NCBI GenBank assembly: GCA_022710775.1
Contig: JAKLGH010000007.1
Location: 9,184-62,133 of the forward strand
DNA length: 52,950 nt
Direction: 5' to 3'
From: Patescibacteria group bacterium
GTDB lineage: Bacteria; Patescibacteriota; Minisyncoccia; Minisyncoccales; UBA5738
The notes under the pieces are model-generated. The model did no database searches and was not told where the DNA came from. It was given only the letters and a program-made list of their open reading frames with translations. The translations under genes and the position numbers were made by a program. Every line of letters starts with the position of its first letter. Position 1 is the stretch's first letter. Of the stretch, positions 11,510 to 51,620 are shown one piece after another.

Positions 11510-11534
11510 AAAATCTGTTAATTTGCAGGCCCCG

Positions 11535-11611
11535 GGCCAGCCCCGGGAACAAAATTCCGATTTTAATCGAAAACTCCGCGCTTTACGCGGAGTTTTTGTT
11601 TTGGCCAGCCC
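11535..11611. repeat. Small repeat element: 9-bp direct repeat GGCCAGCCC (11535-11543 and 11603-11611) flanking a 59-nt insert. The insert begins with CGGGAACAAAAT and contains the dksA-like terminator hairpin (ACTCCGCG-cttta-CGCGGAGT plus T-run).
   Basis: Read directly. The core motif is shared with the repeats at 34934, 36896, 48495 and 51421. Confidence 0.4.
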
Positions 11612-11724
11612 GCTCTGGACATTTTTTTTGTTTTTGTTAGATTTTAGTATTTAAAATTACCGCCAGCCAGGCTAGCCGAACATTCCTGTTTTCAGCCTCG
11701 CCGCGATAAGACACAAGGAAAAAT

Positions 11725-19492: not shown

Positions 19493-19519
19493 ACCTGCGG
19501 CCGGAGCTAAACCAAAACT

Positions 19520-22294: not shown

Positions 22295-22320
22295 TTTCGT
22301 TTTCCATCAATATTTTAAAA

Positions 22321-22345
22321 GGCTTCGTTAAACGCGAAGCCTTTT
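22321..22345 (+). terminator. Terminator hairpin for ORF 19520-22294 (GGCTTCG-ttaaacg-CGAAGCC followed by TTTT)
   Basis: Read directly. Confidence 0.6.
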
Positions 22346-22377
22346 AGAAAAATAAAATAGGGATCTTGATATCCCTA
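22345..22377 (-). terminator. Terminator hairpin for the minus-strand SPFH gene (TAGGGAT-cttgat-ATCCCTA, T-rich on the minus strand). It overlaps the stop codon.
   Basis: Read directly. Confidence 0.5.
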
Positions 22378-23589
22378 TTCTTCCTCTTTATTTGATTTTC
22401 CTTTTTGTTGTGGCTGCCCTCCTTGCCTGGCCTGCATACCCCGCGACAATAAATGAAGCGGGGTAGTAAGACCCAACGGATCCTTGCCTTCGAGGCCAGA
22501 AACCTCTATTTGTTCCTGGTGCACATCTTTCTTGATAAGCTTGCGGAATAACAACCAGGTTTCCGTAGCTTTCTCCGGGTTCAGGCCGATTCTATCCCGC
22601 AACTCAATGATTGAATCGCGGAAATGCTCCCGCTCGGTCTTCTCGGACCTCTGCTCCAGTTCTTCTTTTGCCAGATCATCCCTGGCTTTCTGGATATAAT
22701 CCGGCAAGCCGATATCCGGTACCGTAATTTGCAGAATCTCGATACCGACAAGCCGAAGAACAAGGTGCCTGGAACCGTTATTAAAAGAACTGATCATTTC
22801 CGATTTCAAGGCTTCGTCTTCGACGTTGACAATCGTGCTGATGATCGCTTCGCGAAAACCCTTTTTATCTTTTAAGGCCTTTTCCATCTTTTTTGTAATG
22901 GCGTATTCACGAATCCCTTGATTAGTTGGATCGCTAATAATGTCTTCCACGCCTGCCGCTTGCCCGACATCCAGATAGCGAATGACGGAAAACGGATTCT
23001 TGTAATCAGGGTGCCAGGTCATGGAAGCTAAAACCCCGATTGTCCCATTCTTAACAGCAACTCTCACTTGGGACAAATCAGTGTTTTTATCCATCACATC
23101 GATCCGGATCACATCCCAAATAAAGGGGATCACCAGGCAGTATCCCTCTTGAACAAGATAAGGAATCCTGCCTCCCATCCAGGTACGAATGCCGATCTGT
23201 TTCGGCGTTGCCTGCACTTCCTTAATAAATAAAATTGCAAGCAAGCCGCTGGCCGCGAAACAACATAGAGCTTGGGTAAAATTTACCCAAACCCCGCCGG
23301 CCAGATAATAAAGGCCCAAAGCTAAGGGTAAGACCAGCAACAATCCGGCGAGCACATTCATGCGATGCTCAAGACTAGCCGCAGCAGCCATCTCTGTTTG
23401 CTGTTCTTCTGTATATTCAGAGCGCCCACTTGCTGTGGGTGCCGGCGTTTCTACCGCTGGTTCCGGTTCAGGCCTTGGTAGCCCATGTTCCGAACCTTCT
23501 GCCGGATTTTGATCTGTTCCGGCATTGCGCCCCGGCGTATCATCTTCGGAAGGTAGTACCGGGCCGTGCATTGGCCCAAAATTATCCAT
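22375..23589 (-). CDS. SPFH/band-7 (stomatin/prohibitin-like) membrane protein with a disordered N-terminal extension
   Basis: Two N-terminal hydrophobic helices are followed by a region with the flavour of an SPFH core (IRTWMGGRIPYLVQEGYCLVIPFIWDVIRIDVMDKNTDLSQVRVAVKNGTIGVLASMTWHP) and a coiled-coil C-terminus. Confidence 0.55.
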   Translation of the reverse strand: MDNFGPMHGPVLPSEDDTPGRNAGTDQNPAEGSEHGLPRPEPEPAVETPAPTASGRSEYTEEQQTEMAAAASLEHRMNVLAGLLLVLPLALGLYYLAGGVWVNFTQALCCFAASGLLAILFIKEVQATPKQIGIRTWMGGRIPYLVQEGYCLVIPFIWDVIRIDVMDKNTDLSQVRVAVKNGTIGVLASMTWHPDYKNPFSVIRYLDVGQAAGVEDIISDPTNQGIREYAITKKMEKALKDKKGFREAIISTIVNVEDEALKSEMISSFNNGSRHLVLRLVGIEILQITVPDIGLPDYIQKARDDLAKEELEQRSEKTEREHFRDSIIELRDRIGLNPEKATETWLLFRKLIKKDVHQEQIEVSGLEGKDPLGLTTPLHLLSRGMQARQGGQPQQKGKSNKEEE

Positions 23590-23669
23590 AGCTATTCACC
23601 TCTTCTTTTTGGTATTCATCAAGCTATACTTCAATCCATATGTGAAATATGACAAGGATCTGTTTTTAA

Positions 23670-23698
23670 ATTATAGCATACTTTACTATTTTTGTCAA
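23670..23698 (-). promoter_or_regulatory. Sigma70-like promoter for the SPFH gene: TTGACA, 17 nt, TATAAT on the minus strand
   Basis: The reverse complement of 23670-23698 reads TTGACAaaaatagtaaagtatgcTATAAT. A GAGGTG RBS lies ahead of the ATG at 23589. Confidence 0.6.
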
Positions 23699-23760
23699 TG
23701 AAAATTACAGCCGCCAGGCGGCTGCTTTTTGCCAATATATGCCAGCGCAAATCAATAACG

Positions 23761-23788
23761 TTGCCCCCGATTTTCCCCATGTTATAAT
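23761..23788 (+). promoter_or_regulatory. Sigma70-like promoter with extended -10 (TTGCCC, 16 nt, TGtTATAAT) for ORF 23867-24262
   Basis: Read directly. Confidence 0.5.
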
Positions 23789-23866
23789 ATATGAATGGTC
23801 AATGATCGCTCAGGCGGGTTTTTGGATTAATCCAAGCCTCGAATAAGCATCAATGATGCATAAAAT

Positions 23867-24262
23867 ATGCCTGAAAAAATCTCCAAACAAAAGTTTTGGG
23901 AGCTGTACCGTAAGCTTCCGACCGAACTTCAAGACGCGCTTTTCGACGACGATTTATGGAACAACGTTGCCGAAATTTGCAGCCGCTACCAAGCGAATGA
24001 TAGCCATGACCTGATATCGGACGGATTGTTCAATGTTTTGCTGGGCATCCTCCCTCCCAATATTTTCATCGACGGGCTGGCAAACGAGCTAAAAACCGAT
24101 AAAGCCACAACGAGCCGGATCATCCATGAGATCAACCGATTTGTCTTATTCCCCGTAAAAGAAGCCCTGGAGGATATTTATAATCTTCAAATGACCCCGC
24201 TTGCCGGAGCTCCTTCGCCCAACGCCACAAAAAGAAGCGCCTACCAGGAGCCGATAGGGTAG
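23867..24262 (+). CDS. Hypothetical soluble protein of 131 aa, first gene of the PrgI/VirB4 sub-cluster
   Basis: ORF track. No motifs recognised. Confidence 0.5.
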   Translation: MPEKISKQKFWELYRKLPTELQDALFDDDLWNNVAEICSRYQANDSHDLISDGLFNVLLGILPPNIFIDGLANELKTDKATTSRIIHEINRFVLFPVKEALEDIYNLQMTPLAGAPSPNATKRSAYQEPIG

Positions 24263-24372
24263 CTTTGGATGTCTGAGAACAAGCGGCTTTTATTTTTTCG
24301 TTTTGCGCGTTAATGAATTAGGGCATTTAAAAAGGTTCGACTGCTTTTCAAAGAGTTATATCCCGGTATCTT

Positions 24373-24810
24373 ATGAATTTCATCCTACCCCAATTCATCG
24401 ATATGGAAACCAAGGTGATCGGACCGCTCACTTTGAAGCAATTCATATACCTCGGGATCGGGGGCGGAGCGTCGCTCTTCCTTTACATGATGTCAACCTC
24501 CAATCCGGAGGGGTTTCCTTTAATAGCCTGCCTGGCTATAGTGATACTCATTATGCTGGTTTCGTTCGCCCTCGCCTTCGTTAAGGTGAACGGGATAACT
24601 CTGCCGGTACTGATAAAACATTCCTTCCTTTTTAACCTGGCGCCCAAAATTTATCTTTGGAAAAAATTCCCTAACGCCAAAATCGTCAACCCAAACCAGG
24701 GAGTGATTAAAATAGTAAAAGGACCGGCAAGCAAAAAAGCCGACCGGGTCACTACAAAAAAAAGCGAACTGAAAAAATTAAGGAACTTTATGGAAACGAA
24801 AGGCAATTGA
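24373..24810 (+). CDS. PrgI/VirB3-like small membrane protein of a Gram-positive-type T4SS
   Basis: A 145-aa protein with an N-terminal motif (IPQFIDMETKVIGPLTLKQFIYL) and two TM helices, lying immediately upstream of VirB4. This is the typical PrgI-PrgJ arrangement. Confidence 0.6.
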   Translation: MNFILPQFIDMETKVIGPLTLKQFIYLGIGGGASLFLYMMSTSNPEGFPLIACLAIVILIMLVSFALAFVKVNGITLPVLIKHSFLFNLAPKIYLWKKFPNAKIVNPNQGVIKIVKGPASKKADRVTTKKSELKKLRNFMETKGN

Positions 24811-24832
24811 AGCCTTAAGCCCAACGCACCAC

Positions 24833-25459
24833 ATGGCATTCACATCAACCCAACAATTCCTAGAGATCGACCAGATAAAAGAAGGCGTTATCGTCTTAAA
24901 AAACAAGGCTCTGCGCGGCCTCCTGATGGTTTCTTCGATCAATTTCGCTTTAAAAGCGGAAGACGAGCAAACCGCCATTATTTACCAATTCCAGAGTTTT
25001 CTCAATTCGCTGGATTTTTCGCTGGAAATTTTTATCCAAAGCCGGCAGCTGAATATCACGAATTACCTGGATAAGTTAAAAGACCTGGAAATAAGGCAAA
25101 CCAACGACCTTTTAAGGATCCAAACCGCCGAATACCGAAAGTTCATCAATGAGCTGATATCGTCGGGTTCGATCATGAATAAAACCTTTTACGTGGTCAT
25201 CCCTTTCACTTTGATGAATCTGCCTAACCTCCCGAAATCAAAAGAAGCGGCCAGGTCCGCCAGCGAGGAACAATTCCAGCGCGCCAAATCCCAGTTATGG
25301 CAGCGGATGGAATTCGTGGCGCTCGGCCTCCGGCGCTGCGGCCTTCAATGCGTTCCGTTGAACAGCCTGGAACTGGTTGAATTCTTTTGGAGCCTGTACC
25401 ATCCGCAGGAATCGGAAAGCGGTTATTATCCTGAAATCCCGCCGGAGCTGATAACTTGA
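24833..25459 (+). CDS. virB4: VirB4/TraC-family ATPase, N-terminal fragment (208 aa)
   Basis: ...IDQIKEGVIVLKNKALRGLLMVSSINFALKAEDEQTAIIYQFQSFLNSLDFSLEIFIQSRQLN resembles the extreme N-terminus of Gram-positive VirB4 (PrgJ/ConE-like) proteins. It terminates at a TGA at 25457-25459. Confidence 0.55.
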   Translation: MAFTSTQQFLEIDQIKEGVIVLKNKALRGLLMVSSINFALKAEDEQTAIIYQFQSFLNSLDFSLEIFIQSRQLNITNYLDKLKDLEIRQTNDLLRIQTAEYRKFINELISSGSIMNKTFYVVIPFTLMNLPNLPKSKEAARSASEEQFQRAKSQLWQRMEFVALGLRRCGLQCVPLNSLELVEFFWSLYHPQESESGYYPEIPPELIT

Positions 25460-25487
25460 TCCGCTCCGTTATCCAACGTTAAATTCT

Positions 25488-27278
25488 ATGGGTCTTTTCT
25501 CTTCCAAAAAAAAGCAAAAAAAACAGGATTTAGGCCAAAGCCTCGAGATCAACACGATCAATATCAAGGATATCATCGCGCCTTCTTCGATCGCTTTGTC
25601 CAGCGAATATCTTAAGCTGGGGGAAAAATTCGGAAAATCCTTCTTTATTTTTTCTTATCCGCGCTATTTGACGACGGGGTGGTTTGCGCCGATCATCAAT
25701 CTGGAAAGCCCGATGGATATTTCTTTCCATATCCATCCGATCGAGACAGGAACAACGTTGAAACAGCTGCGGAAAAAGCTCACTGAAGTGCAAGCCGAGC
25801 TGATGGAAAGGGAAGAAAAGGGGTTGGTGCGCGATCCCGCGCTGGAAATCGCTTACCAGGACCTTGAATCCCTCCGCGACAAGCTCCAAACCTCCCAAGA
25901 GCGCATGTTCAAGCTTGGAATATACCTTACGGTTTATGAAAATTCCTTGGAAAAATTGAAATCCGTTGAAACGACCCTCCGGTCGATACTTGAATCGAAA
26001 TTAATATATATCAAGCCGTCTCTTTACCAGCAAAAGGAGGGATTCACTTCAACCTGCCCTTACGGTTTAGACGAGATCAATGCGCATACTCCGATGAATA
26101 CCGGACCGCTTTCTTCAACTTTCCCCTTCATCTCCTTTGATTTAAGCGCCAACGACGGCATCCTCTACGGCGTGAACCTCCACAATAATTCTTTGATCCT
26201 GTTTGACCGGTTCAGCCTTGAAAACGCCAACAGCGTGATCTTCGCCAAATCCGGCGCCGGTAAGAGTTACGCCATCAAGCTGGAAGTCCTGCGCTCCATG
26301 ATGATGGGAGTTGAATCGATCATCGTCGATCCGGAAAACGAATACCGGGCCCTCGCGGAAGCGGCCGGAGGTTCATTCATCAACATCTCCCTTACGTCGC
26401 CAAACCATATCAATCCGTTCGATTTGCCGATCCCGCGAGACGACGAGGATCCGGAAAACGTGTTGCGCAGCAATATTATCAACCTGGTTGGCCTTGTCCG
26501 GATCATTTTAGGGGGCTTGTCGCCCGAGGAAGACGCGATCATCGACCGGGCCCTCACGGAAGTTTACGCCGCCAAAGACATCACGCCGGAAACCGACCCC
26601 AGCCTCTGGAAAGAAAGAACGCCGTTGATGCAAGATCTGGAAGCCGTGCTTGAAGGCATGGAAGGAACGGAATCGCTTGTAAGGAGAATCAGAAAATTCA
26701 CCAAGGGAACGTACGCGCAATTTTTCAACCAGCCAAGCAATATCTCAATGGATAAGCTGATGGTGGTTTTCGGCATCCGCGACATGGAGAACGAGTTGCG
26801 TACGGCAGCAATGTTTATTATTATGCGCCATATCTGGAACAAAGTAAGGATGACTTTGAAAAAAAGAATCTTGGTGGTCGACGAGGCTTGGTGGCTTATG
26901 CAAACCGAAGATGGAGCGTCTTTCCTGTACGGTCTTTGCAAAAGGGCCAGAAAATACTGGCTTGGCGTTACCACCATCACGCAAGACGTTGGCGATTTCA
27001 TGAAATCAACTTATGGCCAGCCGATTATTACCAACTCATCGATACAGTTTTTAATGAAGCAATCTCCGGCAACGATCGATATCCTCCAAAAAACTTTTAA
27101 CCTTACCGAAGGAGAAAAAAATCTTTTGCTCGAAGCCGAAGTGGGGGAGGGGCTTTTCTTTGCCGGCCAGAAACACGTTGCCATAAAAGGAATCGCTTCC
27201 TACGTGGAAGATCAAATCATCACCACCAGCCCCGAAGAGATCCAAAAGATCAAAAAGGCAAAAAGCGGCAACGAATGA
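25488..27278 (+). CDS. virB4: VirB4/TraC-family ATPase, main fragment (596 aa)
   Basis: Walker A FAKSGAGKSYAI and Walker B ILVVDEAWW, plus the VirB4 N-domain motif KFGKSFFIFSYPRYLTTGWFAPIIN. It is in a different reading frame from the upstream fragment. The two frames overlap over only about 5 nt around 25455. Confidence 0.85.
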   Translation: MGLFSSKKKQKKQDLGQSLEINTINIKDIIAPSSIALSSEYLKLGEKFGKSFFIFSYPRYLTTGWFAPIINLESPMDISFHIHPIETGTTLKQLRKKLTEVQAELMEREEKGLVRDPALEIAYQDLESLRDKLQTSQERMFKLGIYLTVYENSLEKLKSVETTLRSILESKLIYIKPSLYQQKEGFTSTCPYGLDEINAHTPMNTGPLSSTFPFISFDLSANDGILYGVNLHNNSLILFDRFSLENANSVIFAKSGAGKSYAIKLEVLRSMMMGVESIIVDPENEYRALAEAAGGSFINISLTSPNHINPFDLPIPRDDEDPENVLRSNIINLVGLVRIILGGLSPEEDAIIDRALTEVYAAKDITPETDPSLWKERTPLMQDLEAVLEGMEGTESLVRRIRKFTKGTYAQFFNQPSNISMDKLMVVFGIRDMENELRTAAMFIIMRHIWNKVRMTLKKRILVVDEAWWLMQTEDGASFLYGLCKRARKYWLGVTTITQDVGDFMKSTYGQPIITNSSIQFLMKQSPATIDILQKTFNLTEGEKNLLLEAEVGEGLFFAGQKHVAIKGIASYVEDQIITTSPEEIQKIKKAKSGNE

Positions 27279-27883: not shown

Positions 27884-28627
27884 CTATACCCGGCTTACTG
27901 ACGCCCCAAGCTTGGCCGAAACCAAGCTTCTCAAAACCAAATATTGCTGGGCAATGGAAAAAACGCTTGATGTAATCCAATAAAGGCTAAGTGCGGACGG
28001 CAGTTTCCAAAAAATAAATACCGTAACAGCGGGAAAAAAGTAAAGCATATACTTCTGCATTTGGCTTTGCATCTCTTCCATCATGTCGGTTTCTCCGCCG
28101 TTGCGCGTAGCGCGGGGAGTCAGATCGGTGACCATTTTTGTCTGGAAGTATTGCAAAACACCGGCAATAATAGCCATAAATAAACTTCCTTTAGCCAAGT
28201 CAAAGCCAAAAAAATTGGAATCAATCATTCCGGGATTGGAAACCGAAGGATACAGTTTGGTTAATATTTCAGGGGTGATGCCGTAAAAAAATACGTAATA
28301 CAGCCCGATCATTATCGGAACCTGGATCAAAATCAGCAAAACTCCTTTTAACGGATTTAGCTTGTTCTCTTTGAAAAGATCCATCGTTAAAAGCGTCTGC
28401 TTTTCCTTGTCGTTCTTATATTTATTCTTGATCTCTTTGATCTTTGGCTGAAGATCGGATGTGATCTTTTGGATCCGGATAGATTCGGACGCCAAAGGAT
28501 AGAGCAAAAGCCTGATCAAAACAGTCAGCACGATAACCGCCAGGCCAAAACTATGGCTAGGCAGGTAATTATAAATGATGATCAGCGCGTTCAGCAGCGG
28601 CTGATAAAAGATTTGAAAGAAATTCAT
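27884..28627 (-). CDS. yidC: Membrane protein insertase YidC (short Gram-positive/CPR form, 247 aa)
   Basis: Multi-TM protein with the conserved YidC/Oxa1 core, in its canonical cluster position. Confidence 0.85.
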   Translation of the reverse strand: MNFFQIFYQPLLNALIIIYNYLPSHSFGLAVIVLTVLIRLLLYPLASESIRIQKITSDLQPKIKEIKNKYKNDKEKQTLLTMDLFKENKLNPLKGVLLILIQVPIMIGLYYVFFYGITPEILTKLYPSVSNPGMIDSNFFGFDLAKGSLFMAIIAGVLQYFQTKMVTDLTPRATRNGGETDMMEEMQSQMQKYMLYFFPAVTVFIFWKLPSALSLYWITSSVFSIAQQYLVLRSLVSAKLGASVSRV

Positions 28628-29115: not shown

Positions 29116-29921
29116 ATTATGGTTGTGTCGCGGCTAATTTTAAGCCGAAATTAATAGATTGCCTGGGAGCGGCGCGTTCTTTTTATTTTTTCGCTCCCAA
29201 TCAAAATTTTTAAAACTTTCTTGTTTTTTTAGGAACAAGAAAAACAAATATTATTTTGCTTTCGGACCACAAAATAATAAGTTTATTGTACATTTTTTTA
29301 GGATTTTGTAAACGCTGGCCCCGGAATTCCCGGAAATTCCGGGCGTTTCCCCGGTTATCCCCTCAAATATGCGCCTTTTCCACTGTTTTTCCACACTATT
29401 TAACGCTCTGGATATATTCTCTGCCGTTCAAATATCGCCTTTTGGATTTTTGCCGGCCGTTTTTCTTGCAATTTTAATTGTTTTTGACTATTTTAAATTT
29501 ATGATACTATGAGTTATAGCAAAATTCCCGACGGCCCGTTGTTCGGGAATTTTAGGGCCAAAAAATAAACTACCCCGGGGCAGAGCCCCGAGGTATTCCT
29601 ACCGCTCCGCTATCGCTTCGCGGATAGGAAAAGTATGTTTTTCCTCCGCTTCGCTCCGGGCTGACATTCATCCCCGCGGCAAAGCCGACGGGGTATTCTG
29701 TCAGATTAATAAAAAAGGCCTTTTGTCTTTTTGTGCTGTTTTTCCCGCTTTCATTAAGCTCGGTGCGCAAGACAGTCGACACGACCATAATCTATCCAAG
29801 CCTCTTTTTCGAATACTGGCTGTTCGAAAAGGTTTAAAACATCTACTGCCTATCTCCGCGAAACGCGAAGAATTTTACCTCGTTTCAAGGTATTAAGCGC
29901 GAAAGGCAACAATTTCCCATC
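29116..29921. promoter_or_regulatory. Putative oriC part 1 (rpmH-dnaA intergenic)
   Basis: Tandem DnaA-box-like sites TTTTCCACT (29365-29373) and TTTTCCACA (29376-29384), plus TTATCCCCT at about 29352. AT-rich tracts at 29170-29300. CCCCGGAAT(T) palindromic motifs at 29306-29345. Position between rpmH and dnaA. Confidence 0.55.
29563..29735 (+). ncRNA. Candidate structured small RNA or element inside the oriC region. It begins with the motif AAATAAACTAC-CCGGGGCAGAGCCCCG-GGTATTC (also present at 1308-1347). It contains a 9-bp bulged hairpin (CCCCGCGGC-aaa-GCCGaCGGGG) and ends in a terminator-like AAAAAAGGCCTTTTGTCTTTTTG.
   Basis: Read directly. Strand and RNA status are inferred only. Confidence 0.35.
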
Positions 29922-32827: not shown

Positions 32828-34771
32828 TCAATTTGGCGCGGCAAAAGCTTCTTTTCCGTATTTGGGGAGTATTTTATTCATAAAAGAGCGGAATATCGGC
32901 CCGGCAACCACAACGCCGGGCTCTTTTTTTAATGGCGCGTTGTTGTTGTTTCCAGCCCAGATGCCGACAACGATCTGCGGGGTATAACCCATAACCCAGC
33001 CATCTTTGTAGTCGCTGGTTGTTCCGGTTTTTGCCGCCACCTGGTAGTTGGGAAAATAAATCGGGGAATTATAACCAAAGATCGGGGCTCTTGCGTTGTT
33101 GTCAGAAAGAATGCTGTTGACCATATAGGCGCTTCGGGAGCTTAACACTCTTCGCGGCGTTTTGCTATTTTCGTAAACTAAGTTGCCGTTGTTGTCGGTT
33201 ATTTTTAATATTGATACGACCGGCATTCTCATTCCGTTTGCCGCAAACACGCCGTAAGCGTTGACCATGTCGATCAGCTTTACTTCGCCGCCACCCAAAA
33301 CCAGCGACAAGCCGTAAAAAGTTGAAGGATTGTGCAGGGTTGTGATACCCATGTCGGTTGCCTTGTCGATGCTTTTTTGGAGACCGGCAAGCGAGTTCAG
33401 GACTTTTACCGCCGGAACGTTTAAGGAGCAGCCGAGAGCTTGTCTTAAGGTGATCGGGCCGCGATAACTTAAATCAAAATTCTTCGGGCAATATTCTTTT
33501 CCGCCCCAAACGCCGAAACACGTTGGCTCATCAACCACTACCGTAGTATCGCTGTAGCCGTTTTCGAAGGCTGTGGCGTAAACAAAGGGCTTAAATGACG
33601 ATCCTGGCTGCCTTCCCGGGTTTTCAACAGCCACGTTGTATTGCGGGTCGAACAGGCAATTGACTCCGGGCGTGCAATCTTTTGGATAAGGTTCGTCGTA
33701 GTAATTCCCGCTGCCCAAGGTCATTGCCAGGATTTCCCCGGTTTTCGGATCGGACGCAACCAGGGCGGCATTATGGGCGTAGTAGGCGTAATTTCTTTTA
33801 ACGCCGGTCCTCACTTCTTCTTCCGCCGCCATTTGGAGTTCCCAGTCAAGGGTTGTGTAGATGGTTAATCCGCTTTTTTCCAAAGCTTCCTTTCCATATT
33901 GTTCCTCAAGCTGTTGTTTGACCCAAAGGGTGAAATAAGGCGCCTTAAACTCATTTTTTCTCTCAACGAATTTTATTTCTATCCCTTTAGCCGTTTCTGC
34001 TTCTTCTTTCGATAAATAACCGGTTTCCGCCATCCGGTCGAGGATGTAATTTTTTCTGACAAAAAGATCTTCCTTGTGGCTGGCATAATAACTAGGCGAT
34101 TGGATGAAGGCGATTAGCGTGGCTGCTTCTCCAAGGTTTACTTCTTTTGTCGGCTTATTGAAATAAGTTTGGCTGGCCGCCCCAACTCCATATGCGTTTT
34201 GGCCGAACGGAACTTGGTTTAAATACCATTCCAATATTTGATCTTTGGAATAGCGGCGATCCAGTTCGATGGCCATTACCACTTCCCGTATTTTTCTTTC
34301 CCCGGTTTTTTCGTTTGTTAAAAAGGTTGAACGAATAAGCTGCTGGGGTATCGTTGATCCTCCGACCGAGGCTTTTTTAATCTTAAGATCCATCCAAATG
34401 GCCCGAAGTATACCTCTCGGATCGATTCCGAAATGCTTGTAAAAGTTGGCGTCTTCCGTTGCAACCGCCATTTGCTTAAGGTAGGTTGGCATCGCGTCGA
34501 GCGGCACCCAGCTTCTTTTCTCTTCGCCATATATTTCGTAAAGAAGGATCTGGCCGGTCCGGTCGTATATTTTAGTTGATTGAACCAGGTTTTTTTCGGT
34601 GAATTTTTCCGGTCTCGGCATATCTTTAGTGTAATAAATAAACAAAATGCCGACAGTTACCGCGCCTAAAAGAAACAGCACGGCCAGAAAGCCGAATATT
34701 TTAATAAAAAAAGACGATACCCTGGAAAAAAATCTTTTCTCTTTGGTTTTTTTATTGTAATCTTTTGACAT
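32828..34771 (-). CDS. Class A penicillin-binding protein (glycosyltransferase plus transpeptidase)
   Basis: N-terminal TM helix, GT51 motifs (TEDANFYKHFGIDPRG; GGSTIPQQL), and transpeptidase SxxK / SxN / KTG motifs (KTGTTSD). Confidence 0.9.
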   Translation of the reverse strand: MSKDYNKKTKEKRFFSRVSSFFIKIFGFLAVLFLLGAVTVGILFIYYTKDMPRPEKFTEKNLVQSTKIYDRTGQILLYEIYGEEKRSWVPLDAMPTYLKQMAVATEDANFYKHFGIDPRGILRAIWMDLKIKKASVGGSTIPQQLIRSTFLTNEKTGERKIREVVMAIELDRRYSKDQILEWYLNQVPFGQNAYGVGAASQTYFNKPTKEVNLGEAATLIAFIQSPSYYASHKEDLFVRKNYILDRMAETGYLSKEEAETAKGIEIKFVERKNEFKAPYFTLWVKQQLEEQYGKEALEKSGLTIYTTLDWELQMAAEEEVRTGVKRNYAYYAHNAALVASDPKTGEILAMTLGSGNYYDEPYPKDCTPGVNCLFDPQYNVAVENPGRQPGSSFKPFVYATAFENGYSDTTVVVDEPTCFGVWGGKEYCPKNFDLSYRGPITLRQALGCSLNVPAVKVLNSLAGLQKSIDKATDMGITTLHNPSTFYGLSLVLGGGEVKLIDMVNAYGVFAANGMRMPVVSILKITDNNGNLVYENSKTPRRVLSSRSAYMVNSILSDNNARAPIFGYNSPIYFPNYQVAAKTGTTSDYKDGWVMGYTPQIVVGIWAGNNNNAPLKKEPGVVVAGPIFRSFMNKILPKYGKEAFAAPN

Positions 34772-34933
34772 TTTCTCCTTTTTTGATAATTTAGCTGATA
34801 AGGCTTTTAAGGGGTTGAAGCGGGAATGGGGGATTTATCCCCAATTTATCCACATCATGCCCATATATTATTTATATATTATTTTCCGTTTTGTTCCAAA
34901 AGAAGCTTAGCTTAACAAAGGATGTTTATTTAT

Positions 34934-35098
34934 GGGCCGAGGGCAAACCCTGGGAACAAAAGGAAAAAAGAGGGCCTTGGCATACCGCTTCTAATTCTAC
35001 AGACAAGAAATCATTTCTAACGACGCCAAGGTGTTGATTTCGGGGCTAAGCTCGCCTGCATTGTTTATGCCGCGCCGGGCGGTTTGCCGGGTTCAAAG
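34934..35098 (+). repeat. Intergenic repeat element R1 (165 nt). 5' end GGGCAAACCCTGGGAACAAAA. 3' end GCCGCGCCGGGCGGTTTGCCGGGTTCAAAG.
   Basis: Shares both ends with R2 at 36896-37028. The 5' GGCAAACC and 3' GGTTTGCC can pair. Confidence 0.6.
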
Positions 35099-35139
35099 AT
35101 GATAACATCCGGAGAATAATCGGCTAAATCGGGGGATAT

Positions 35140-36390
35140 TTGAAGATAATCCCTTTGGAAAACGAACATTTTGATTTAAAATCAAACTATATGGAAATAA
35201 ACACAAACCCGCAAAAAATACAAGAGGTATTGCAGAGAGGGGTAAAAGATATTGTTGAAAGGGAGCATCTTGAAGAACAGATGAAGTCGGGGAAGCAACT
35301 TCGGATCAAGCTGGGCATAGATCCAACCGCGGCTGATCTGCATCTTGGCCATTCGGTTGTTTTAAGGAAATTAGCGCAATTTCAGGAGCTTGGCCACAAG
35401 GCGGTTTTAATTATCGGGGATTTTACTACCCGCATTGGAGATCCGTCCGGCCGGACCAATACCCGTAAGCCTCTGACGGAGGAGGAAATAAAGCAAAACA
35501 TGAAAAGCTATATCGATCAGGCTTCGATGGTGATCGACATAAAATCGGCGGAGATACATTATAATGGCGAATGGTACGAACAAAAACCAATGTCTTTTTT
35601 AATGGATCTGGCGGGTCGTTTTACGGTTGCCCGGATGCTGGATCGGGAAGATTTTCAAAACAGGATCAAGCAAGGGCTGGACGTAAGCCTGCTTGAACTG
35701 CTTTATCCTTTGTTGCAGGGATATGATTCCGTTGCGTGCAAGGCCGATGTTGAGCTTGGCGGTTATGACCAGCGGCTGAATGTTTTGTTTGCCCGGCGCG
35801 TGCAGAAAAAATTTAATATGGAAGAGCAGGATGTATTAACTGTTCCTCTATTGGTCGGAACGGACGGGGAAAAGAAAATGAGCAAGTCGGTTGGAAATTA
35901 TATCCGTTTGACGGAAGAGCCCAAAAAGATGTATGCCCAGCTGATGACTATTCCCGATTCTTTGATGTGGAATTATTTTGAATTGCTGACCGTTAAGCCA
36001 AAATCCGAGATTGATTGCCTAAAAACCGAGGTTGCCGATTCAAAAAAACATCCAAGAGACGTAAAAATGGCTCTTGCCGGAGAAATAGTTGCCGGTTACC
36101 GCAATCAGGGCGCAGCAGAAGAGGCTAAAGAGGAATTCATAAACGTAGCCCAATTGGGCGCGCTTCCGTCGGATATCCCGGTTGTAAAAGCGCCGTATGG
36201 CGAAGCCAATATCCTTGATTTTTTAGTATCGATCTCAGCCGCCCCGTCGAAATCAGAGGCCAAGAGGCTGGTTATCCAGAACGGAGTGAGAATTGACGAT
36301 GTTGTCAGAAATGAATGGAGGGATGTTGTTGCGGTTAAAAGAGGGCAGGTTGTCCAAATTGGAAAAAACAAGTTCTTCCGGATCGGTTAA
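35140..36390 (+). CDS. tyrS: Tyrosyl-tRNA synthetase
   Basis: HIGH-type motif (HLGH), KMSKS, and a C-terminal S4-like domain. Putative TTG start at 35140 with GGGGGA upstream. Confidence 0.9.
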   Translation: MKIIPLENEHFDLKSNYMEINTNPQKIQEVLQRGVKDIVEREHLEEQMKSGKQLRIKLGIDPTAADLHLGHSVVLRKLAQFQELGHKAVLIIGDFTTRIGDPSGRTNTRKPLTEEEIKQNMKSYIDQASMVIDIKSAEIHYNGEWYEQKPMSFLMDLAGRFTVARMLDREDFQNRIKQGLDVSLLELLYPLLQGYDSVACKADVELGGYDQRLNVLFARRVQKKFNMEEQDVLTVPLLVGTDGEKKMSKSVGNYIRLTEEPKKMYAQLMTIPDSLMWNYFELLTVKPKSEIDCLKTEVADSKKHPRDVKMALAGEIVAGYRNQGAAEEAKEEFINVAQLGALPSDIPVVKAPYGEANILDFLVSISAAPSKSEAKRLVIQNGVRIDDVVRNEWRDVVAVKRGQVVQIGKNKFFRIG

Positions 36391-36878
36391 GCCGTTTTCT
36401 CTTGCCTTATCAAATAAGTTGCCGCAACCGATAGAGCATCGGCGGCATCATCGGGTTTAGGTATCGCGTCAAGATTTAAGATGCGTTTAATTTCGTTTTG
36501 AATGTCTTTTTTTTCAGCCCGCCCGAATCCGGTAATGGTCATTTTTACTTCCAAAGGGGTAAAGCGGTAGACAGGCATTCTTTTTTTTGCCGCGGCAAGA
36601 AGGATGACTCCTTGCGCCTGGCTGACGGGAACTATTGTTTTAGCGTTCTTAAAAAAGAATACGTTTTCCATAACCAAAGCTTCCGGAGAATATTCCTTGA
36701 TTATCTTGGTTAACTGTTGGTTGATTTTTTTCAGACGATAGGGGAGCGCCATATCCGGTTCCGTCAAAATCGTTCCGTAAGACACACATTCAATAAAAGA
36801 CCTGTTTTTTGCTTTGCTGTGTTTTATAATCCCAAATCCGGTGGTAGCCAGTCCGGGGTCTATGCCGATTATTATCAT
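36387..36878 (-). CDS. ruvC: Holliday junction resolvase RuvC
   Basis: MIIIGIDPGLATTGFGII N-terminus. The start was moved to the ATG at 36878. The ORF track extends to 37067, through repeat R2. Confidence 0.85.
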   Translation of the reverse strand: MIIIGIDPGLATTGFGIIKHSKAKNRSFIECVSYGTILTEPDMALPYRLKKINQQLTKIIKEYSPEALVMENVFFFKNAKTIVPVSQAQGVILLAAAKKRMPVYRFTPLEVKMTITGFGRAEKKDIQNEIKRILNLDAIPKPDDAADALSVAATYLIRQEKTA

Positions 36879-36895
36879 ATTGTTTTTATTGCTTT

Positions 36896-37028
36896 GCGGG
36901 CTACGGGCAAGCCCTGGGAACAAGCTAAGGAAGATGGCTTGTCTGCCCCACAAGCACTCTTCGAGGAAGCAATGTTTGGCTGCCTGCGTGGTTATGTGCC
37001 GCTCCGGGCGGGTTTGCCGGATCCAAAG
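36896..37028 (+). repeat. Intergenic repeat element R2 (133 nt), a paralogue of R1. 5' end GGGCAAGCCCTGGGAACAAG. 3' end GCCGCTCCGGGCGGGTTTGCCGGATCCAAAG.
   Basis: The ends are conserved with R1 and the interior has diverged. The A-to-G change in the 5' arm keeps pairing with the 3' arm as a G-U wobble. Confidence 0.6.
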
Positions 37029-37162
37029 CAATAACGCGCGGTTATTGTTTTGCGGAACACGGAGCAACCATACGGAAAATCATATTTGATTATACCTTAT
37101 TCGGAAAAATTCCTAAACCTAAAAAAATCCCCCGCAAGAATGCGGGGGGAGCCTGTACTGCT

Positions 37163-37897
37163 TTAGTCTTTTAAATTGGAGTAAACATCCTGAACGGCGT
37201 CGTTGTCGTCTAAGAGATCAAACAATTTTTCGCATTGGGCCCGAACCTTCTCGTCAGTTTCTAATTCTTCTTTTGGAATCCAGCCGATGGAGAAAGATTC
37301 AACTTTCACTCCTTTTTCTTCCAATCCCTTTTTTACAGCTTCTGGTTTTTCCGGTTCGGTGTAAACTTCCAAGATATTTTCGTACCAATGGACGTCGCTG
37401 GCTCCTACCTCAATGGCAGCCATTTCCAGATTATCTTTGTTTTTCAGTTCCGGCGTTTGATTGTTTAAATCAACATCCACGATGCCTTTTCTTTCAAACA
37501 TCCACTGAATTGCTCCTTCGCCCACCATTTTTCCGCCGTTTTGATTCAGGATTGTTTTTATTTCTGCCAGCGCCCGGTTCCGGTTTTCCGTGATTCCCGA
37601 TATCAGGACAGCTACGTTTCCCGGCCCGTAAGCCTCAAACAGGAACTCCACAAAAGCCTCGCTGCCGTCGGCTCCCGATGCCCGCGAGATCGCCCTTTCA
37701 ATGTTGTCTTTGGGCATGTTCACCGTTCTGGCCAGATCGATAGCCATTCTTAACTTGTTGTTGGTTTCCGGATTTGATCCGCCTTCTTTGACGGCCACAG
37801 TGATCACTCTGATCATCTTGGAAAAGGCCGCCCCCCTCTTTTTATCCGCGAGATCTTTCTGATGTTTGATTGTTTTTGCGTGAGAATGTCCAGACAT
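37163..37897 (-). CDS. yebC: YebC/PmpR-family transcriptional regulator
   Basis: Conserved YebC N-terminus (MSGHSHAKTIKHQKDLADKKRGAAFSKMIRVITVAVKEGGSNPETNNKLR). Located upstream of ruvC, as is typical. Confidence 0.9.
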   Translation of the reverse strand: MSGHSHAKTIKHQKDLADKKRGAAFSKMIRVITVAVKEGGSNPETNNKLRMAIDLARTVNMPKDNIERAISRASGADGSEAFVEFLFEAYGPGNVAVLISGITENRNRALAEIKTILNQNGGKMVGEGAIQWMFERKGIVDVDLNNQTPELKNKDNLEMAAIEVGASDVHWYENILEVYTEPEKPEAVKKGLEEKGVKVESFSIGWIPKEELETDEKVRAQCEKLFDLLDDNDAVQDVYSNLKD

Positions 37898-38317
37898 GGT
37901 AATGATTTATATTTTTTGAATTATTTTTATTTAACTGGCAGAATGCCTCGGGGCTCTTTCCAGGGGTAGATTATTGGTATATTTTTGCCAATTTGGCTTG
38001 GGGGAAGGCCGCAATGTTTGGTATTTACGATCCAAGAACGAAAAATCGCCATAAACAATGCGAACAACATTATATTAATCAAAAAAACGATTTAGTCAAG
38101 GGTATTTCCGTTAATTATAACAAAATTCGTCAATTTATAACAAAATATGAAGCGAAATAATAATACACCTGTTGCAATTAAGACTGATATATTATAAAAT
38201 ATAAGTCTTCGCAAAAAACAGCGTTTTTCAAAGAAAAAACAGGGTGGTTGGTTATAAACCCGGCCTACCCCTTGACAAAACTTACTAAAAATATTAAAAT
38301 AAGGGATACTTACGAAA

Positions 38318-47482: not shown

Positions 47483-48421
47483 ATGATCATTTTCTTATAC
47501 GGCGAAGATACCTACCGCCTGAATAAAAAATTGAACGAAATTATACAGCAATACAAAAACCAAAAAAAAGGGTTGAATTTTGTTTCATTCGATGCCGCAG
47601 TTTCTCCGTACGAAGAATTTTCCCGGGAAATCAGACAAAAGTCCATATTCGGGGAAAAAAAGTTCGCAATTGCCAGAAACGTAATTTCAAACAAGAATTT
47701 CAAAGAGGACCTGCTAAAAGATATTGATAGTTTAGCCGGATCCGGAGACGTGATTGTGGCTTGCCAGGAAGGCCATGTTTTAAAAACCGACCGGTTGCTT
47801 TCCGCATTTAAAAAAAGCGCCAAATGCCAGGAATTCGAACTGCTTAGCCCAATAAAACTGAATGCATGGGCTCAGAAGGAAGCTGAAAGCCTTGGTTTAA
47901 AAATTTCGAAAGCCGCATTGGACAAGCTGGTTCTGTTCATCGGCAATGACTTATGGCGATTATCGAACGAAATCCAAAAGCTGGCTAATTACCGTTACGG
48001 AAAAAATGGAGAAGCTCAAGAAGAAGATGTCGTATTGCTGGTCAAACCCACGGTTGAAACCGATATCTTTAAAACCGTAGATGCTTTGGCCAAGAAAAAC
48101 AAAAAACTGGCTCTTTTGCTGGTTCATGAGCACTTGGAAGCCGGAGATTCCCATTTTTATATCCTTTCGATGATCAATTACCAATTCCGAAACTTGGTCA
48201 TCGTAAAAGCTGAATCAGAAAGGGTAGGCGGCAGCCAGGGATTGGCTAAGGACTTTGGTATTCATCCTTACGTTATTCGTAAATCGTTAGAGTTGAGCCG
48301 CGCCTTTACCTCGGCTGATTTAAAGAGGATATACTTAAAGATTTTTCAAATAGACTTGGACGTAAAAACCGGAAAATTAAATGCCGAAGTTGCGCTGGAC
48401 CTGCTGATTTCTGAAATTTAA
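47483..48421 (+). CDS. holA: DNA polymerase III delta subunit
   Basis: MIIFLYGEDTYRLNKKLNEI N-terminus and a three-domain architecture of about 310 aa. The start was moved to the ATG at 47483. The upstream extension overlaps mutM. Confidence 0.7.
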   Translation: MIIFLYGEDTYRLNKKLNEIIQQYKNQKKGLNFVSFDAAVSPYEEFSREIRQKSIFGEKKFAIARNVISNKNFKEDLLKDIDSLAGSGDVIVACQEGHVLKTDRLLSAFKKSAKCQEFELLSPIKLNAWAQKEAESLGLKISKAALDKLVLFIGNDLWRLSNEIQKLANYRYGKNGEAQEEDVVLLVKPTVETDIFKTVDALAKKNKKLALLLVHEHLEAGDSHFYILSMINYQFRNLVIVKAESERVGGSQGLAKDFGIHPYVIRKSLELSRAFTSADLKRIYLKIFQIDLDVKTGKLNAEVALDLLISEI

Positions 48422-48440
48422 CCAACGTTAAGGCGAACAA

Positions 48441-48467
48441 AAAACCGCAGTTTGATGCGGTTTTTTG
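48441..48467 (+). terminator. Rho-independent terminator of holA (CCGCA-gtttga-TGCGG followed by TTTTTTG)
   Basis: Read directly. Confidence 0.65.
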
Positions 48468-48494
48468 TTCGGTTTCAAGATTTATTATTTTGCA

Positions 48495-48812
48495 AACCCA
48501 AGGGTACCCTGGGAACAAAATATCGACGATTCCAAAGGAGGCTACTCCTTTGACCCCGCAGGCTGCGGGGAATACCACAGGAAAATCGAATTTATATTTT
48601 TCTATCGGTATTTCGCCTCCCGGGGTACGAACCCCCGGCGGTGACCGAAGGAAATCCCGAAGCATTGAGGGGCGACCAGAGGATGTTTCCTCCCCCGCAG
48701 GATGCGGGGCGGAGTACCTAAGTCCTCCTCATTTCTCCCCGCTTTTTGCGGGCAGGAAGCCTAAGGCTTCATTTTGTTCCAAGGGCTTGTCCCGGGGTCT
48801 ACAAATTAATAA
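48495..48812 (+). repeat. Repeat element R3 (about 318 nt). It carries terminal inverted repeats CCCTGGGAACAAAAT / ATTTTGTTCCAAGGG at 48507-48521 and 48771-48785. Its right 220 nt are an inverted copy of R4 (51421-51620).
   Basis: Alignment by eye of R4 against the reverse complement of R3. There is high identity across about 200 nt, with a 37-nt indel. Confidence 0.7.
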
Positions 48813-48817
48813 ATATT

Positions 48818-49102
48818 TTACTTCTTTTTGGCTTTTAATGCTACCGGTTTGGATAGGAATTTTGTGATTCTTGATTTTTTGCGGGAAGCGGTGTTTTTTT
48901 TGATCACGCCGGCTTTAGCCGCTTTATCCAGAGCTTTATAGATCGCAGAAAGGCTTTTTTTCGCTTCGGCAACTTTTTCCTGCCCGACAAGAGCTTTTGC
49001 TTCCTTTAAAAGGCTCTTCGCTTTTTGTTTATAAGCGGTATTGCGGATCTTTCTTTTTTGGCTTTGGCGAAGCGCTTTTTTTGCTGATTTTATTATAGGC
49101 AT
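48818..49102 (-). CDS. rpsT: 30S ribosomal protein S20
   Basis: MPIIKSAKKALRQSQKRKIRNTAYK… a canonical S20. Confidence 0.9.
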   Translation of the reverse strand: MPIIKSAKKALRQSQKRKIRNTAYKQKAKSLLKEAKALVGQEKVAEAKKSLSAIYKALDKAAKAGVIKKNTASRKKSRITKFLSKPVALKAKKK

Positions 49103-49337
49103 TTTTTTCTTTTACAAGACTTACGCAGTCGCCCCATTTTCTGCGTTAAAGTATCCGGGTGCTAGTCGCCCAAGCCGTACGGCTCCGGCGCACCCTCGCG
49201 CTTTGCCTTGAATCTGTGCCAACCGCGTAAGTCTTGATTTTAATATGGTTGAATTCAACAATAGTCATCAGTATAACACTATTCCAAATTTTTGCAATAA
49301 AAAAGAGGCGGAATGCCTCTTTAAACGCCTGGTTTCG

Positions 49338-49883
49338 TCAACAACCGCAATCCTTGCGCGAGCTAACATAGGCCATGAAAGTTAAAATGATAGCGAATAT
49401 CACCAGAAAATAATTTTTGCCGAAATGATAGCCGCTGCCATCTTCTTTCACGCCATAAGAAAAAGGCGAGGGCGGCGGTTCGTAAGTTTCGACATACCTG
49501 TAGGCCTTTTGCGTATTATTTGCAGGCAAAAAGGAGAATTCGCGCAGAATATTGCTTTCTTTGTCGATCAGCCGGGAAAGAACCACGCCGGTTGTCGCGT
49601 TTCTGATAAATTCGGCGGCATTGGCGTTAAATTCCATTTCTGTGCTATCAAAGCGGGTACTGCGCTGGATATTGTTAAAGCCGTCCATCTTATAGATCTG
49701 GATGCCTTTCTGGGCCATGGCGTTTGGTATCGTTTGGTCCCAAGCGATCGGCTGGTCGGGCGCCGGATAAAGGGTCCAAATCCATATAACAGCCAGAAGA
49801 ATTATCGCTACAGCTTTTACGATTTTGGCAATTATCTCGCGTTTTCCAAGCATTTTAGCACCTCTTAAAGTACTAGGCTGCAT
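49338..49883 (-). CDS. Hypothetical membrane protein (N-terminal and C-terminal TM helices)
   Basis: ORF track. No family recognised. The start is uncertain. Confidence 0.45.
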   Translation of the reverse strand: MQPSTLRGAKMLGKREIIAKIVKAVAIILLAVIWIWTLYPAPDQPIAWDQTIPNAMAQKGIQIYKMDGFNNIQRSTRFDSTEMEFNANAAEFIRNATTGVVLSRLIDKESNILREFSFLPANNTQKAYRYVETYEPPPSPFSYGVKEDGSGYHFGKNYFLVIFAIILTFMAYVSSRKDCGC

Positions 49884-49979
49884 TATAAATAAAATTTTTG
49901 ATAAGTCAATTTTAAATTAAGCTATTGAACCCGGCGGTTCTTTAGGTAAAATGGAGGATAACGTTAAATTATTCATATT

Positions 49980-51284: not shown

Positions 51285-51420
51285 AACGGTTGAAAAACAG
51301 TGGATATTGTTCTTGGCTTATTCTTGACAATTTAAAGCTAACAAGCTAAACTTTAATCTAATAGAACAGTTGCCGGAGGAGCCCCCTTAATCGGGGATTT
51401 TAAAGTTGTTATATAAGTTT

Positions 51421-51620
51421 ATTAATTTGTAGACCCGGGCGAATTCTGGGAACAAAATGAAGCCTTAGGCTTCCTGCCCGCGAAAAGCGGGCAGAAATGA
51501 GGATTCCAAAGGAAGCATCCTTTGGTCGCCCCTCAATGCTTCGGGATTTCCTTCGGTCACCGCCGGGTGTTCGCACCCCGGGAGGCGAAATTCCTATGAA
51601 AAATATAAATTCGATGAGTA
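51421..51620 (-). repeat. Repeat element R4, an inverted partial copy of R3. It contains the TCTGGGAACAAAAT core at 51444-51458 and overlaps the RBS and start of the downstream 3D-domain gene.
   Basis: See R3. Confidence 0.7.

Follow-up and report, generated by a model that had tools for sequence, protein, structure and literature searches.

Introduction

The BOX elements of pneumococci consist of conserved terminal modules and variable internal hairpin modules; they are non-coding and intergenic, form stable folds and are likely co-transcribed. Genomes of the Candidate Phyla Radiation (CPR, or Patescibacteria), the group studied here, are very small and usually described as streamlined. We analysed a stretch of 52,950 nucleotides of DNA from a Patescibacteria group bacterium (hereafter, the window), and in particular two of its intergenic elements: R1, between a penicillin-binding protein (PBP) gene and tyrS, and R2, between ruvC and yebC. 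A further point of comparison is provided by GTAG-tagged repetitive extragenic palindromes (REPs) and the REPINs that they form, which are defined as palindromic units of 20-40 bp with a terminal unpaired GTAG and unrelated flanks, with partners 20-100 bp apart (Di Nocera et al. 2013, PMC3733652).

R1 and R2 had originally been predicted to be a pair of elements with conserved ends, representing either a structured RNA or a MITE (miniature inverted-repeat transposable element). According to our analysis, they are likely to be two copies, diverged and probably decaying, of a lineage-specific family of modular, non-coding repeats in the intergenic spacers of one Candidatus Paceibacterota (CPR) clade. 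The family consists of multiple dispersed copies with covarying hairpins; its presence at individual sites varies, and near-identical copies occur in unrelated flanks. Its best reading is that of a non-autonomous repeat of the REP, MITE or BOX kind.

Results

Anatomy and copies of the repeat family

The two sequence blocks on which the pairing of R1 and R2 was based are found at the coordinates first quoted, with a similarity far above chance. The 5′ block reads GGGCAAACCCTGGGAACAA in R1 (34941-34959) and GGGCAAGCCCTGGGAACAA in R2 (36905-36923), and the 3′ block reads GCCGCGCCGGGCGGTTTGCC (35069-35088) and GCCGCTCCGGGCGGGTTTGC (36998-37017), respectively. In the pairwise alignment, the 5′ block reaches slightly further left than had been noted (TTT-R-Y-GGGC...GGGCAARCCCTGGGAACAA), and the 3′ block takes the form GCCGC-N-CCGGGCGG(G)TTTGCCGG...CAAAG...ATAAC. 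Only R1 and R2 match the 3′ pattern in the window. The 5′ pattern, with up to three mismatches, has five matches against 0.06 expected, and a gapped head pattern also has five, against 0.00 expected. R1 and R2 are therefore not a private pair, since the 5′ block is present in six copies. Heads lie on the plus strand at 11514-11556, 34921-34963, 36885-36927, 48481-48522 and 51418-51459, and on the minus strand at 48813-48770. With respect to the copy count that had been proposed as a check, this 53-kb window alone has six heads, against about 0 expected, and related contigs have more.

The head of the family is a segment of about 40 nucleotides (nt) that comprises an A+T box (TTTATTAATTT), in most cases a GTAG tag, a G+C hairpin of up to 7 bp and then GGAACAAAA. 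Its consensus is TTTATTAATTTGTAGACCCCGGG-loop-CCCTGGGAACAAAAT, and the tag is GTAG in 11 of the 17 aligned copies and GCAG or GTGG in others. The body contains a variable number of hairpin modules and is followed by a tail, a quasi-palindromic A/T-rich module (AAATTCGATTT). Two types differ in the orientation of the tail relative to the head: A-type units end in ...ATATAAATTCGAT, and B-type units, such as R1 and R2, carry the tail inverted. The A-type layout is a head, optional hairpins, P3 (AAAGGA-AGCA-UCCUUU), UCGCC, P4, GGCGAAA and an A/U-rich tail ending in ...AATATAAATTCGAT. The A-type set is made up of the metagenome copies, the window copies at 51418-51615 and 48813-48585, and positions 2014-2145 of L003 (related contigs and metagenome loci are given as L numbers). 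Most copies are of the well-conserved A-type; R1 and R2 are degenerate B-type copies. Units span 120-230 nt and contain no consistent open reading frame (ORF). The ATG in AATGAGGA was considered as a start of translation, and it is in frame with the downstream gene in one A-type copy only, being lost or frameshifted in the others; a coding role of the A-type was therefore rejected.

The copies in the window and their parts are as follows.

34921-35129, plus strand: R1, B-type; head model 44.2 bits, E=4.7e-7
34921-34963, plus strand: R1 head, with AT box, degenerate tag ATGG, hairpin GGG-CAAA-CCC and GGGAACAAAA
35064-35129, plus strand: R1 tail block of the shared B-type, GCCGCGCCGGGCGGTTTGCCGGGTTCAAAGATGATAAC...GGAGAATAATCGGCTAAAT
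36885-37086, plus strand: R2, B-type; head at 36885-36927, head model 51.9 bits, degenerate tag GCGG
within R2, plus strand: body with remnants of the A-type P3/UCGCC region (GAGGAAGCAATGTTTGGCTGCC)
36990-37028, plus strand: R2 tail block
37024-37052, plus strand: A-U-rich hairpin of R2
37073-37087: inverted tail module of R2, CGGAAAATCATATTT, the last base of which overlaps the conserved flank TGATTATACC
11514-11620, plus strand: copy with canonical head and tag GCAG, between a dksA-like gene and comM; head model 55.3 bits; body short and distinct, with TCCGATTTTAATCGAAAA, a hairpin with a T-run and then GGCCAGCCCGCTCTGG
48481-48600, plus strand: copy with P3-like and P4-like hairpins and inverted tail; head model 48.1 bits, full A-type model 30.2 bits
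48585-48813, minus strand: A-type copy directly downstream of rpsT, with head, two extra hairpins, P3, P4 with an insert, and a tail ending in ...AATATAAATTCGAT; head model 65 bits, full A-type model 148.9 bits
51418-51615, plus strand: A-type copy; head model 54.6 bits, full A-type model 144.6 bits, fold z=-3.5

The spans first assigned to R1 and R2 (34934-35098 and 36896-37028) fell short of their extent, which is about 34921-35129 and 36885-37086. The tail of the last copy (...AAATTCGAT) overlaps the ATG at 51614 of the gene at 51614-52165. The product of this gene has 183 aa and a hydrophobic segment at its N-terminus, and no match in Pfam. The body of the copy at 11514 (window 11557-11620; TCCGATTTTAATCGAAAA, the T-run hairpin and GGCCAGCCC..GGACA) recurs without a head in L003 and L009 (about 5865-5930 in L003), at the position that R1 occupies in the window.

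The plus-strand copy at 48481-48600 converges on the minus-strand copy at 48585-48813, and one central tail module is common to both. A similar composite is found in L096 (390-661). In both composites an A-type unit and a B-like unit converge on one tail, giving structures of 270-340 bp bounded by inverted heads of about 40 bp, that is, inverted pairs with their heads outwards.

The assignment of R1 and R2 to the B-type comes from the minus-strand copy of L096. This copy has a canonical head and an A-type P3 followed by GCCACGCCGGGCGGTTTGCCGGGCCGAAGGATAATATCATTGGGAAAATCGAATTTATATTT, which corresponds to the 3′ block of R1 and R2 plus the reverse complement of the A-type tail. Because it links the two, R1 and R2 can be read as B-type units with an inverted tail module (AAATTCGATTT). 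The interiors of R1 and R2 had been described as different, which holds in part. They are not wholly unrelated to the family, as GAGGAAGCAATGTTTGGCTGCC of R2 corresponds to AAGGAAGCATCCTTTGGTCGCC of the A-type, and R2 matches the A-type profile beyond the head (nhmmer E=1.3e-4); R1 matches this profile via its head alone. Neither element passes the full A-type model at E<=0.01, and the GTAG tags of both are degenerate.

Distribution among relatives

The window is identical in sequence to a contig of a metagenome-assembled genome of Candidatus Paceibacterota. The order of the PBP, tyrS, ruvC and yebC genes is kept in the relatives and in strain L008, which is 96.5% identical to the window in DNA sequence. 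The TyrS protein is 84% identical to that of the window in L003 and L009, 72% in L004-L006, 69% in L007, 65% in L117 and 63% in L118. On this common background, R1 and R2 are both present in the window and L008 only. The ruvC-yebC spacer measures 284 nt in the window and 110-111 nt in L003 and L009, where a single block of about 190 nt (window about 36895-37086) is missing from the alignment and the sequence on both sides is conserved. L004 is also devoid of R2. At the site of R1, L003 and L009 have other sequence, and L004 has a 116-nt spacer with no R1.

Variation of this kind runs in both directions. L003 and L009 carry a different family member beside the PBP start, a copy that the window does not have. 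Similarly, an A-type copy lies between dnaA and dnaN in L003 and is absent from L009, the window and L008. The empty site in L009 reads TTTTT-ATT-ATTTAAC and the filled site in L003 reads TTTGT-ATT-[AATCCGTAG...AAATTCG]-ATT-ATTTAAC. A 3-4-nt direct repeat, ATT(A), stands on both sides of the insert in the filled site; this is one pair, the sites compared otherwise being too diverged, and it fits either a short target duplication or a microhomology deletion. Outgroup parsimony favours gains.

Further copies are found in the relatives L003, L007, L009, L118 and at 11 metagenome loci. The metagenome census consisted of one scan with a degenerate head-specific pattern, which returned 22 loci, 11 of them with true copies. 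The DNA that these loci share with the window is limited to the element and, in L098, one tRNA gene. Over 230 nt, L107 matches the window copy at 48585-48813 with 98% identity, and its flanks are unrelated. Up to the last tail base of this window copy (48584/5), assemblies of the same organism agree with the window at 99.98-100% identity, and there they break or switch flank: the contigs L114 and L115 end at this point and L110 (4431 onward) continues into a ClpB-like gene. The flank switch represents either a repeat-induced mis-assembly or a real rearrangement. Breaks or switches at precisely this point are what one would expect if the repeat had more copies elsewhere in the genome. The sampled contigs have about one copy per 3.5-9 kb, the window having about one per 9 kb, and copies within a contig share lineage-specific modules, as expected after recent amplification.

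In a genome collection outside which the source species lies, the head pattern gave 78 single matches in unrelated taxa, a number close to chance, and none in Paceibacterota. Viral contigs had zero matches to the head and core patterns.

Structure and covariation

In an alignment of 26 copies fitted to a covariance model, which hence leans towards structure, 93.6% of the cells pair, against 82% in shuffles, and 12 of 17 pairs change on both sides. The observed values are not attained in any of 500 shuffles, and slid controls fall far below them. The alignment contains many G-U pairs, which favour the head-to-tail strand, and the folds of A-type units beat shuffles on either strand (z = -3.5 to -4.7). 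The head hairpin is conserved as sequence among 17 close copies, with no excess covariation; distant heads keep the hairpin with a changed sequence (CGCGGC-GCAA-GCCGUCG in L007 and CCCCGU...ACGGGG in L097). A hammerhead-like three-way junction was considered for the A-type body and rejected, as on inspection by eye the strands of the junction are too short and wrongly ordered, and Rfam is negative.

In R1 and R2 themselves, the complementarity between 5′ and 3′ blocks that had suggested a terminal stem does exist: GGCAAACC (34942-34949) can pair with GGTTTGCC (35081-35088) in R1, and GGCAAGCC (36906-36913) with GGTTTGCC (37011-37018) in R2. However, the 5′ partner of the proposed stem, GGCAARCC, is the apical part of the local head hairpin (GGG-loop-CCC) common to all 17 aligned heads. 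RNAfold places R1 in the local hairpin in both its minimum-energy and its centroid fold, and the long-range stem appears in R2 only. In the B-type copy on the minus strand of L096, which has the same tail, the head loop is GGGTTTACCC, and this gives two U-U mismatches in the middle of the proposed 8-bp stem. Neither element folded better than shuffles (z = -1.5 for R1 and -1.6 for R2 on the plus strand; +0.9 and -0.3 on the minus strands).

The A-to-G change in R2 that had been taken as compensatory lies at 36911, in the loop of the head hairpin. It is a single strain polymorphism, L008 having A, and this one transition is the only variable position in the proposed stem. A single transition that keeps a G-U pair would also be expected from neutral change in a loop. 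Rfam, with its models for T-boxes, 6S RNA and known riboswitches and ribozymes, gave no family over R1 or R2 in the region 34700-37300, even at E<=10, and only two tRNAs in the whole window at the gathering score. For 48400-51700 at E<=10, it gave sub-threshold matches only (E>=0.065), which we attribute to chance. For R1 and R2, a reading as dedicated RNA genes with a closing terminal stem is not supported.

Genes and spacers around R1 and R2

The original gene assignments around the two elements proved right.

32828-34771, minus strand: bifunctional PBP
35191-36390, plus strand: tyrS
36387-36878, minus strand: ruvC, true coding sequence; the extension to 37067 in the ORF track is non-coding read-through into R2
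37087-37098, minus strand: GGTATAATCA box, putative ruvC -10, with invariant columns TGATTATACCTTAT, directly outside the right end of R2
37163-37897, minus strand: yebC

In agreement with the earlier view that the extension of ruvC is in fact R2, RuvC (Pfam) starts at 36878 and its orthologues measure 163 aa in L003, L004, L008 and L009; those of L007, L117 and L118, which are more distant, measure 161-175 aa.

A promoter-like TTGGAA-16-TAAAAT box at 35155-35182 is kept in L003, L008 and L009 and ends 8 nt before the tyrS ATG. This proximity points to a nearly leaderless tyrS mRNA, with R1 upstream of the putative promoter. To the left of R1, a TTGGAA-N17-TATAAA box was read by eye from the sequence for the PBP gene. 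With one box on each side, R1 probably sits between two divergent core promoters. A T-box leader for tyrS was also considered and rejected, as there is no T-box match and R1 lies upstream of the promoter-like box, not in the 5′ untranslated region (UTR) of tyrS.

On the other side of tyrS, the GGTATAATCA box is invariant in all four genomes and lies 24 nt from the ruvC ATG in L003 and L009. In the window, R2 separates this box from the ruvC start and is antisense to ruvC. The box is likely the -10 promoter element of ruvC, in which case the antisense strand of R2 would probably be part of the ruvC leader, or 5′ UTR. Judged by these putative promoters, neither the position of R1 nor that of R2 fits a dedicated small-RNA gene on the plus strand.

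The divergence between the window and L008 was compared for the elements and their surroundings.

body plus tail of R1: 8/137 (5.8%)
body plus tail of R2: 5/101 (5.0%)
third codon positions of PBP and tyrS: 5.4-7.2%
third codon positions of ruvC and yebC: 1.2-4.1%
flanking non-element spacer DNA: 1.3-2.2%
heads: 0/43 changes in R1 and 1/43 in R2

The bodies thus diverge about as much as third codon positions, suggesting that they drift at a roughly neutral rate and that only the heads look constrained, on small counts. R1 and R2 are most likely decaying relics.

Position of the copies relative to genes

About 14 of some 20 copies lie upstream of a co-directional gene in sense orientation, a weak bias. 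The downstream genes are functionally unrelated and include comM, tyrS, dnaN, atpB-like, yidC and ClpB-like genes and genes for secreted proteins. Four tails end at the start codon or overlap it (window 51614, L109, L097 at 10568, and L118). In L118, an A-type unit (3908-4040, minus strand) fills the gap between rnpA and yidC, with the yidC ATG directly after the tail; the same genes overlap by 4 nt in the window (28624-28627). A canonical TTGACA-17-TAAACT promoter is predicted 66 nt upstream of the copy at 51418. The sense bias and the tails at start codons suggest that intact A-type units may be transcribed with the downstream genes as their 5′ leaders, and that these units may provide an A/U-rich start of translation.

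The head was also considered as an intrinsic terminator and rejected: the sequence after the hairpin is A-rich on both strands, and ordinary terminators with a hairpin and a T-run are found nearby (48440-48470 and 37129-37148).

Other repeats and genes in the window

A second, unrelated repeat family (AATAAACTAC-CCCGGGGCAGAGCCCCG-AGGTATTC...) occurs at 1309-1357 and 29556-29715 on the plus strand and, inverted, at 37927-37975. Its block of about 155 nt at 29556-29715 is present in the window and absent from L008. A 14-nt tandem repeat, GTCTTGTCTGACCT, occupies positions 1-112 in 6-7 copies, with inverted copies about 250 nt downstream (329-386), flanking the start of the ORF at 280-1287. A 27-nt tandem repeat is found three times in frame at 10371-10451, inside a 1078-aa ORF (7799-11035) with no Pfam match. 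A type IV secretion-like cluster at 18566-27278 (type IV secretion system pilin, PrgI, TraC-like and TraG/AAA_10) adjoins the dnaA/origin region.

Discussion

The favoured explanation is that the family is mobile but non-autonomous, and spreads as REP/REPIN, MITE or pneumococcal BOX sequences do. In such a scheme, the conserved head hairpin would likely be recognised in trans by an enzyme whose gene lies elsewhere in the genome, and insertion would prefer A+T-rich sites close to gene starts. Well-preserved A-type copies would be co-transcribed in sense as 5′ leaders, with the A/U-rich tail often abutting the start codon, and R1, between divergent promoters, and R2, antisense in the ruvC leader, would be relics with no dedicated function.

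Several observations weigh against this explanation. Pfam, applied to 29 window ORFs and complemented by precomputed Pfam annotation for 25-46.5 kb, shows no gene for a transposase, RAYT or TnpB in the window, and none was identified elsewhere. Solo copies, R1 and R2 among them, lack terminal inverted repeats (TIRs), and inverted heads are found only in the two composite pairs, in whose flanks no target duplication was seen, the parsing of TIRs and duplications being ambiguous in A/T-rich flanks. The evidence for target-site duplication is the one filled/empty pair at dnaA-dnaN, in A+T-rich DNA, which a microhomology deletion fits equally. Part of the A+T box has a counterpart in empty sites, leaving the element boundaries uncertain. 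For R2, a loss in L003 and L009 instead of a gain is possible, given a short head-like remnant there (TTTTTAGTTGC). The census is biased, being a single metagenome scan by a head-specific pattern, and the strong conservation of the A-type core across contigs could reflect an RNA function for the host instead of mobility. The MITE alternative of the original prediction accordingly survives in part: copies are dispersed, hairpin-rich, non-coding and present or absent at orthologous sites, but solo copies lack TIRs, and no transposase was found. A resemblance of GGAACGAAAAC to Tn3-type inverted repeats was also considered and rejected, the outer GGGG and inner TAAG being out of register.

Other explanations differ in how much of this evidence they accommodate. 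R1 and R2 were first read as paralogous structured small RNAs or DNA cruciforms, in which GGCAARCC pairs with GGTTTGCC and the A-to-G change is compensated as G-U. The 8-nt complementarity in both elements is in line with this, as are the use of the long-range stem in the minimum-energy fold of R2, the better folding of the plus than of the minus strands, the A-U pair of L008 where the window has G-U, and the A-U-rich hairpin that follows in R2 and ends in a short U-run. We nevertheless consider it very unlikely, because the 5′ half of the stem is the top of a family-wide local hairpin with the A/G site in its loop, R1 folds into that local hairpin, and neither fold is significantly better than shuffles. 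Furthermore, the L096 minus-strand copy combines the same tail with a non-complementary head loop, the rate at which the bodies evolve is close to the synonymous one, the conserved promoter-like box of tyrS (35155-35182) stands downstream of R1, and Rfam has no match even at E<=10. Still less probable, in our view, is that the head acts at the level of DNA, as a promoter or as an operator bound by a protein, and is reused in front of many genes, with R1 and R2 as regulatory regions. The A+T box (TTTATTAATTTG) is kept directly 5′ of the hairpin and the heads of R1 and R2 are conserved between strains, but no sigma-70-type promoter is predicted at any head, TAWTTTG is not enriched upstream of window genes, and nothing is conserved at -10 distance downstream of GGAACA; the head was rejected on these grounds both as a sigma-70 promoter and as a -35 element of the extracytoplasmic function type. 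In addition, 100-200 nt of conserved structured sequence follow the heads, some of which stand right after stop codons.

The family could also be primarily a functional cis-acting RNA, such as a portable leader, a cassette for translation initiation or stability, or a regulatory RNA, with copies under selection and R1 and R2 still acting on tyrS or ruvC. Covarying hairpins with G-U pairs on the head-to-tail strand argue for this, together with the sense orientation of most copies, the tails at start codons and the promoter upstream of the copy at 51418. Nevertheless, we regard it as unlikely: the unrelated functions of the downstream genes speak against a switch specific for a ligand, copies favour one orientation only weakly, some are arranged as convergent pairs or, like R2, antisense to genes, the conservation of R1 and R2 is itself poor, and the lineage-specific modules within contigs are as expected after recent amplification. 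A speculative idea, to which we give a low probability, is that the A-type unit, with its head hairpin, three-way junction of covarying hairpins and A/U tail, is an undescribed functional RNA module of Paceibacterota. It would be either a self-spreading 'portable 5′ UTR' that confers mRNA stability and Shine-Dalgarno-independent initiation of translation on any gene in front of which it lands, or the RNA partner of a trans-acting mobile-element enzyme, and R1 and R2 would be its fossils.

The outcome for R1 and R2 is deflationary: most likely both are relics, and the supposed 'compensatory G-U' is a polymorphism in a loop. At the level of the genome, a structured repeat present about once per 9 kb in the window, and gained or lost between close relatives, suggests that CPR intergenic DNA is more dynamic than the streamlined picture implies. 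On the practical side, repeats of this family break and mis-join metagenome assemblies and create false ORF extensions, such as that of ruvC over R2. If it is true that A-type units supply a leader and a translation start, they would constitute a simple natural mobile expression signal in organisms not yet cultured.

Comparison with known elements

Our literature search on CPR repeats or structured RNAs found nothing relevant, and the comparison is with elements described in other groups. Like the GTAG-tagged REPs, the family has a short, palindromic, G+C-rich head with a stem of 7 bp and a loop of 4-5 nt. The unpaired GTAG before the stem in 11/17 heads, and the GCAG or GTGG of others, fall within the degeneracy described for those elements (PMC3733652). 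Copies are likewise extragenic and multi-copy, some forming inverted pairs with heads outwards, and G-T/G-U pairs suggest transcription. In contrast to GTAG-REPs, the head carries 100-200 nt of conserved structured body and tail in nearly all copies, the tags are degenerate in R1 (ATGG) and R2 (GCGG), and no RAYT gene is found in the window; unlike in REPINs, the inverted partners are 230-300 bp apart.

As in classical MITEs (Correia/NEMIS, ERIC), units are small, non-coding and multi-copy, occupy A+T-rich intergenic sites and show presence/absence polymorphism. The paired form (window 48481-48813; L096 390-661), bounded by inverted heads of about 40 bp, adds to this likeness. Most units, R1 and R2 among them, are solo and differ from MITEs in having no TIRs, and there is no clear target duplication around the pairs and no related insertion sequence was identified. 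With the PATEs (palindrome-associated transposable elements) derived from IS200/IS605, the family shares hairpins near the ends, solo units without TIRs and insertion beside a recurring short A/T-rich sequence. It departs from them in that its left and right hairpins are not consistently alike, the possible 3-4-nt direct repeat is atypical, and no Y1 transposase or TnpB was seen.

The pneumococcal BOX elements have no sequence relationship to the family and belong to another phylum, and the family differs from them by a tail that can be inverted relative to the head and is often found right at start codons. The two are alike in being modular, intergenic, foldable and likely co-transcribed. By analogy, the architecture of the family appears closest to that of modular repeats such as pneumococcal BOX, and its paired form appears MITE-like.

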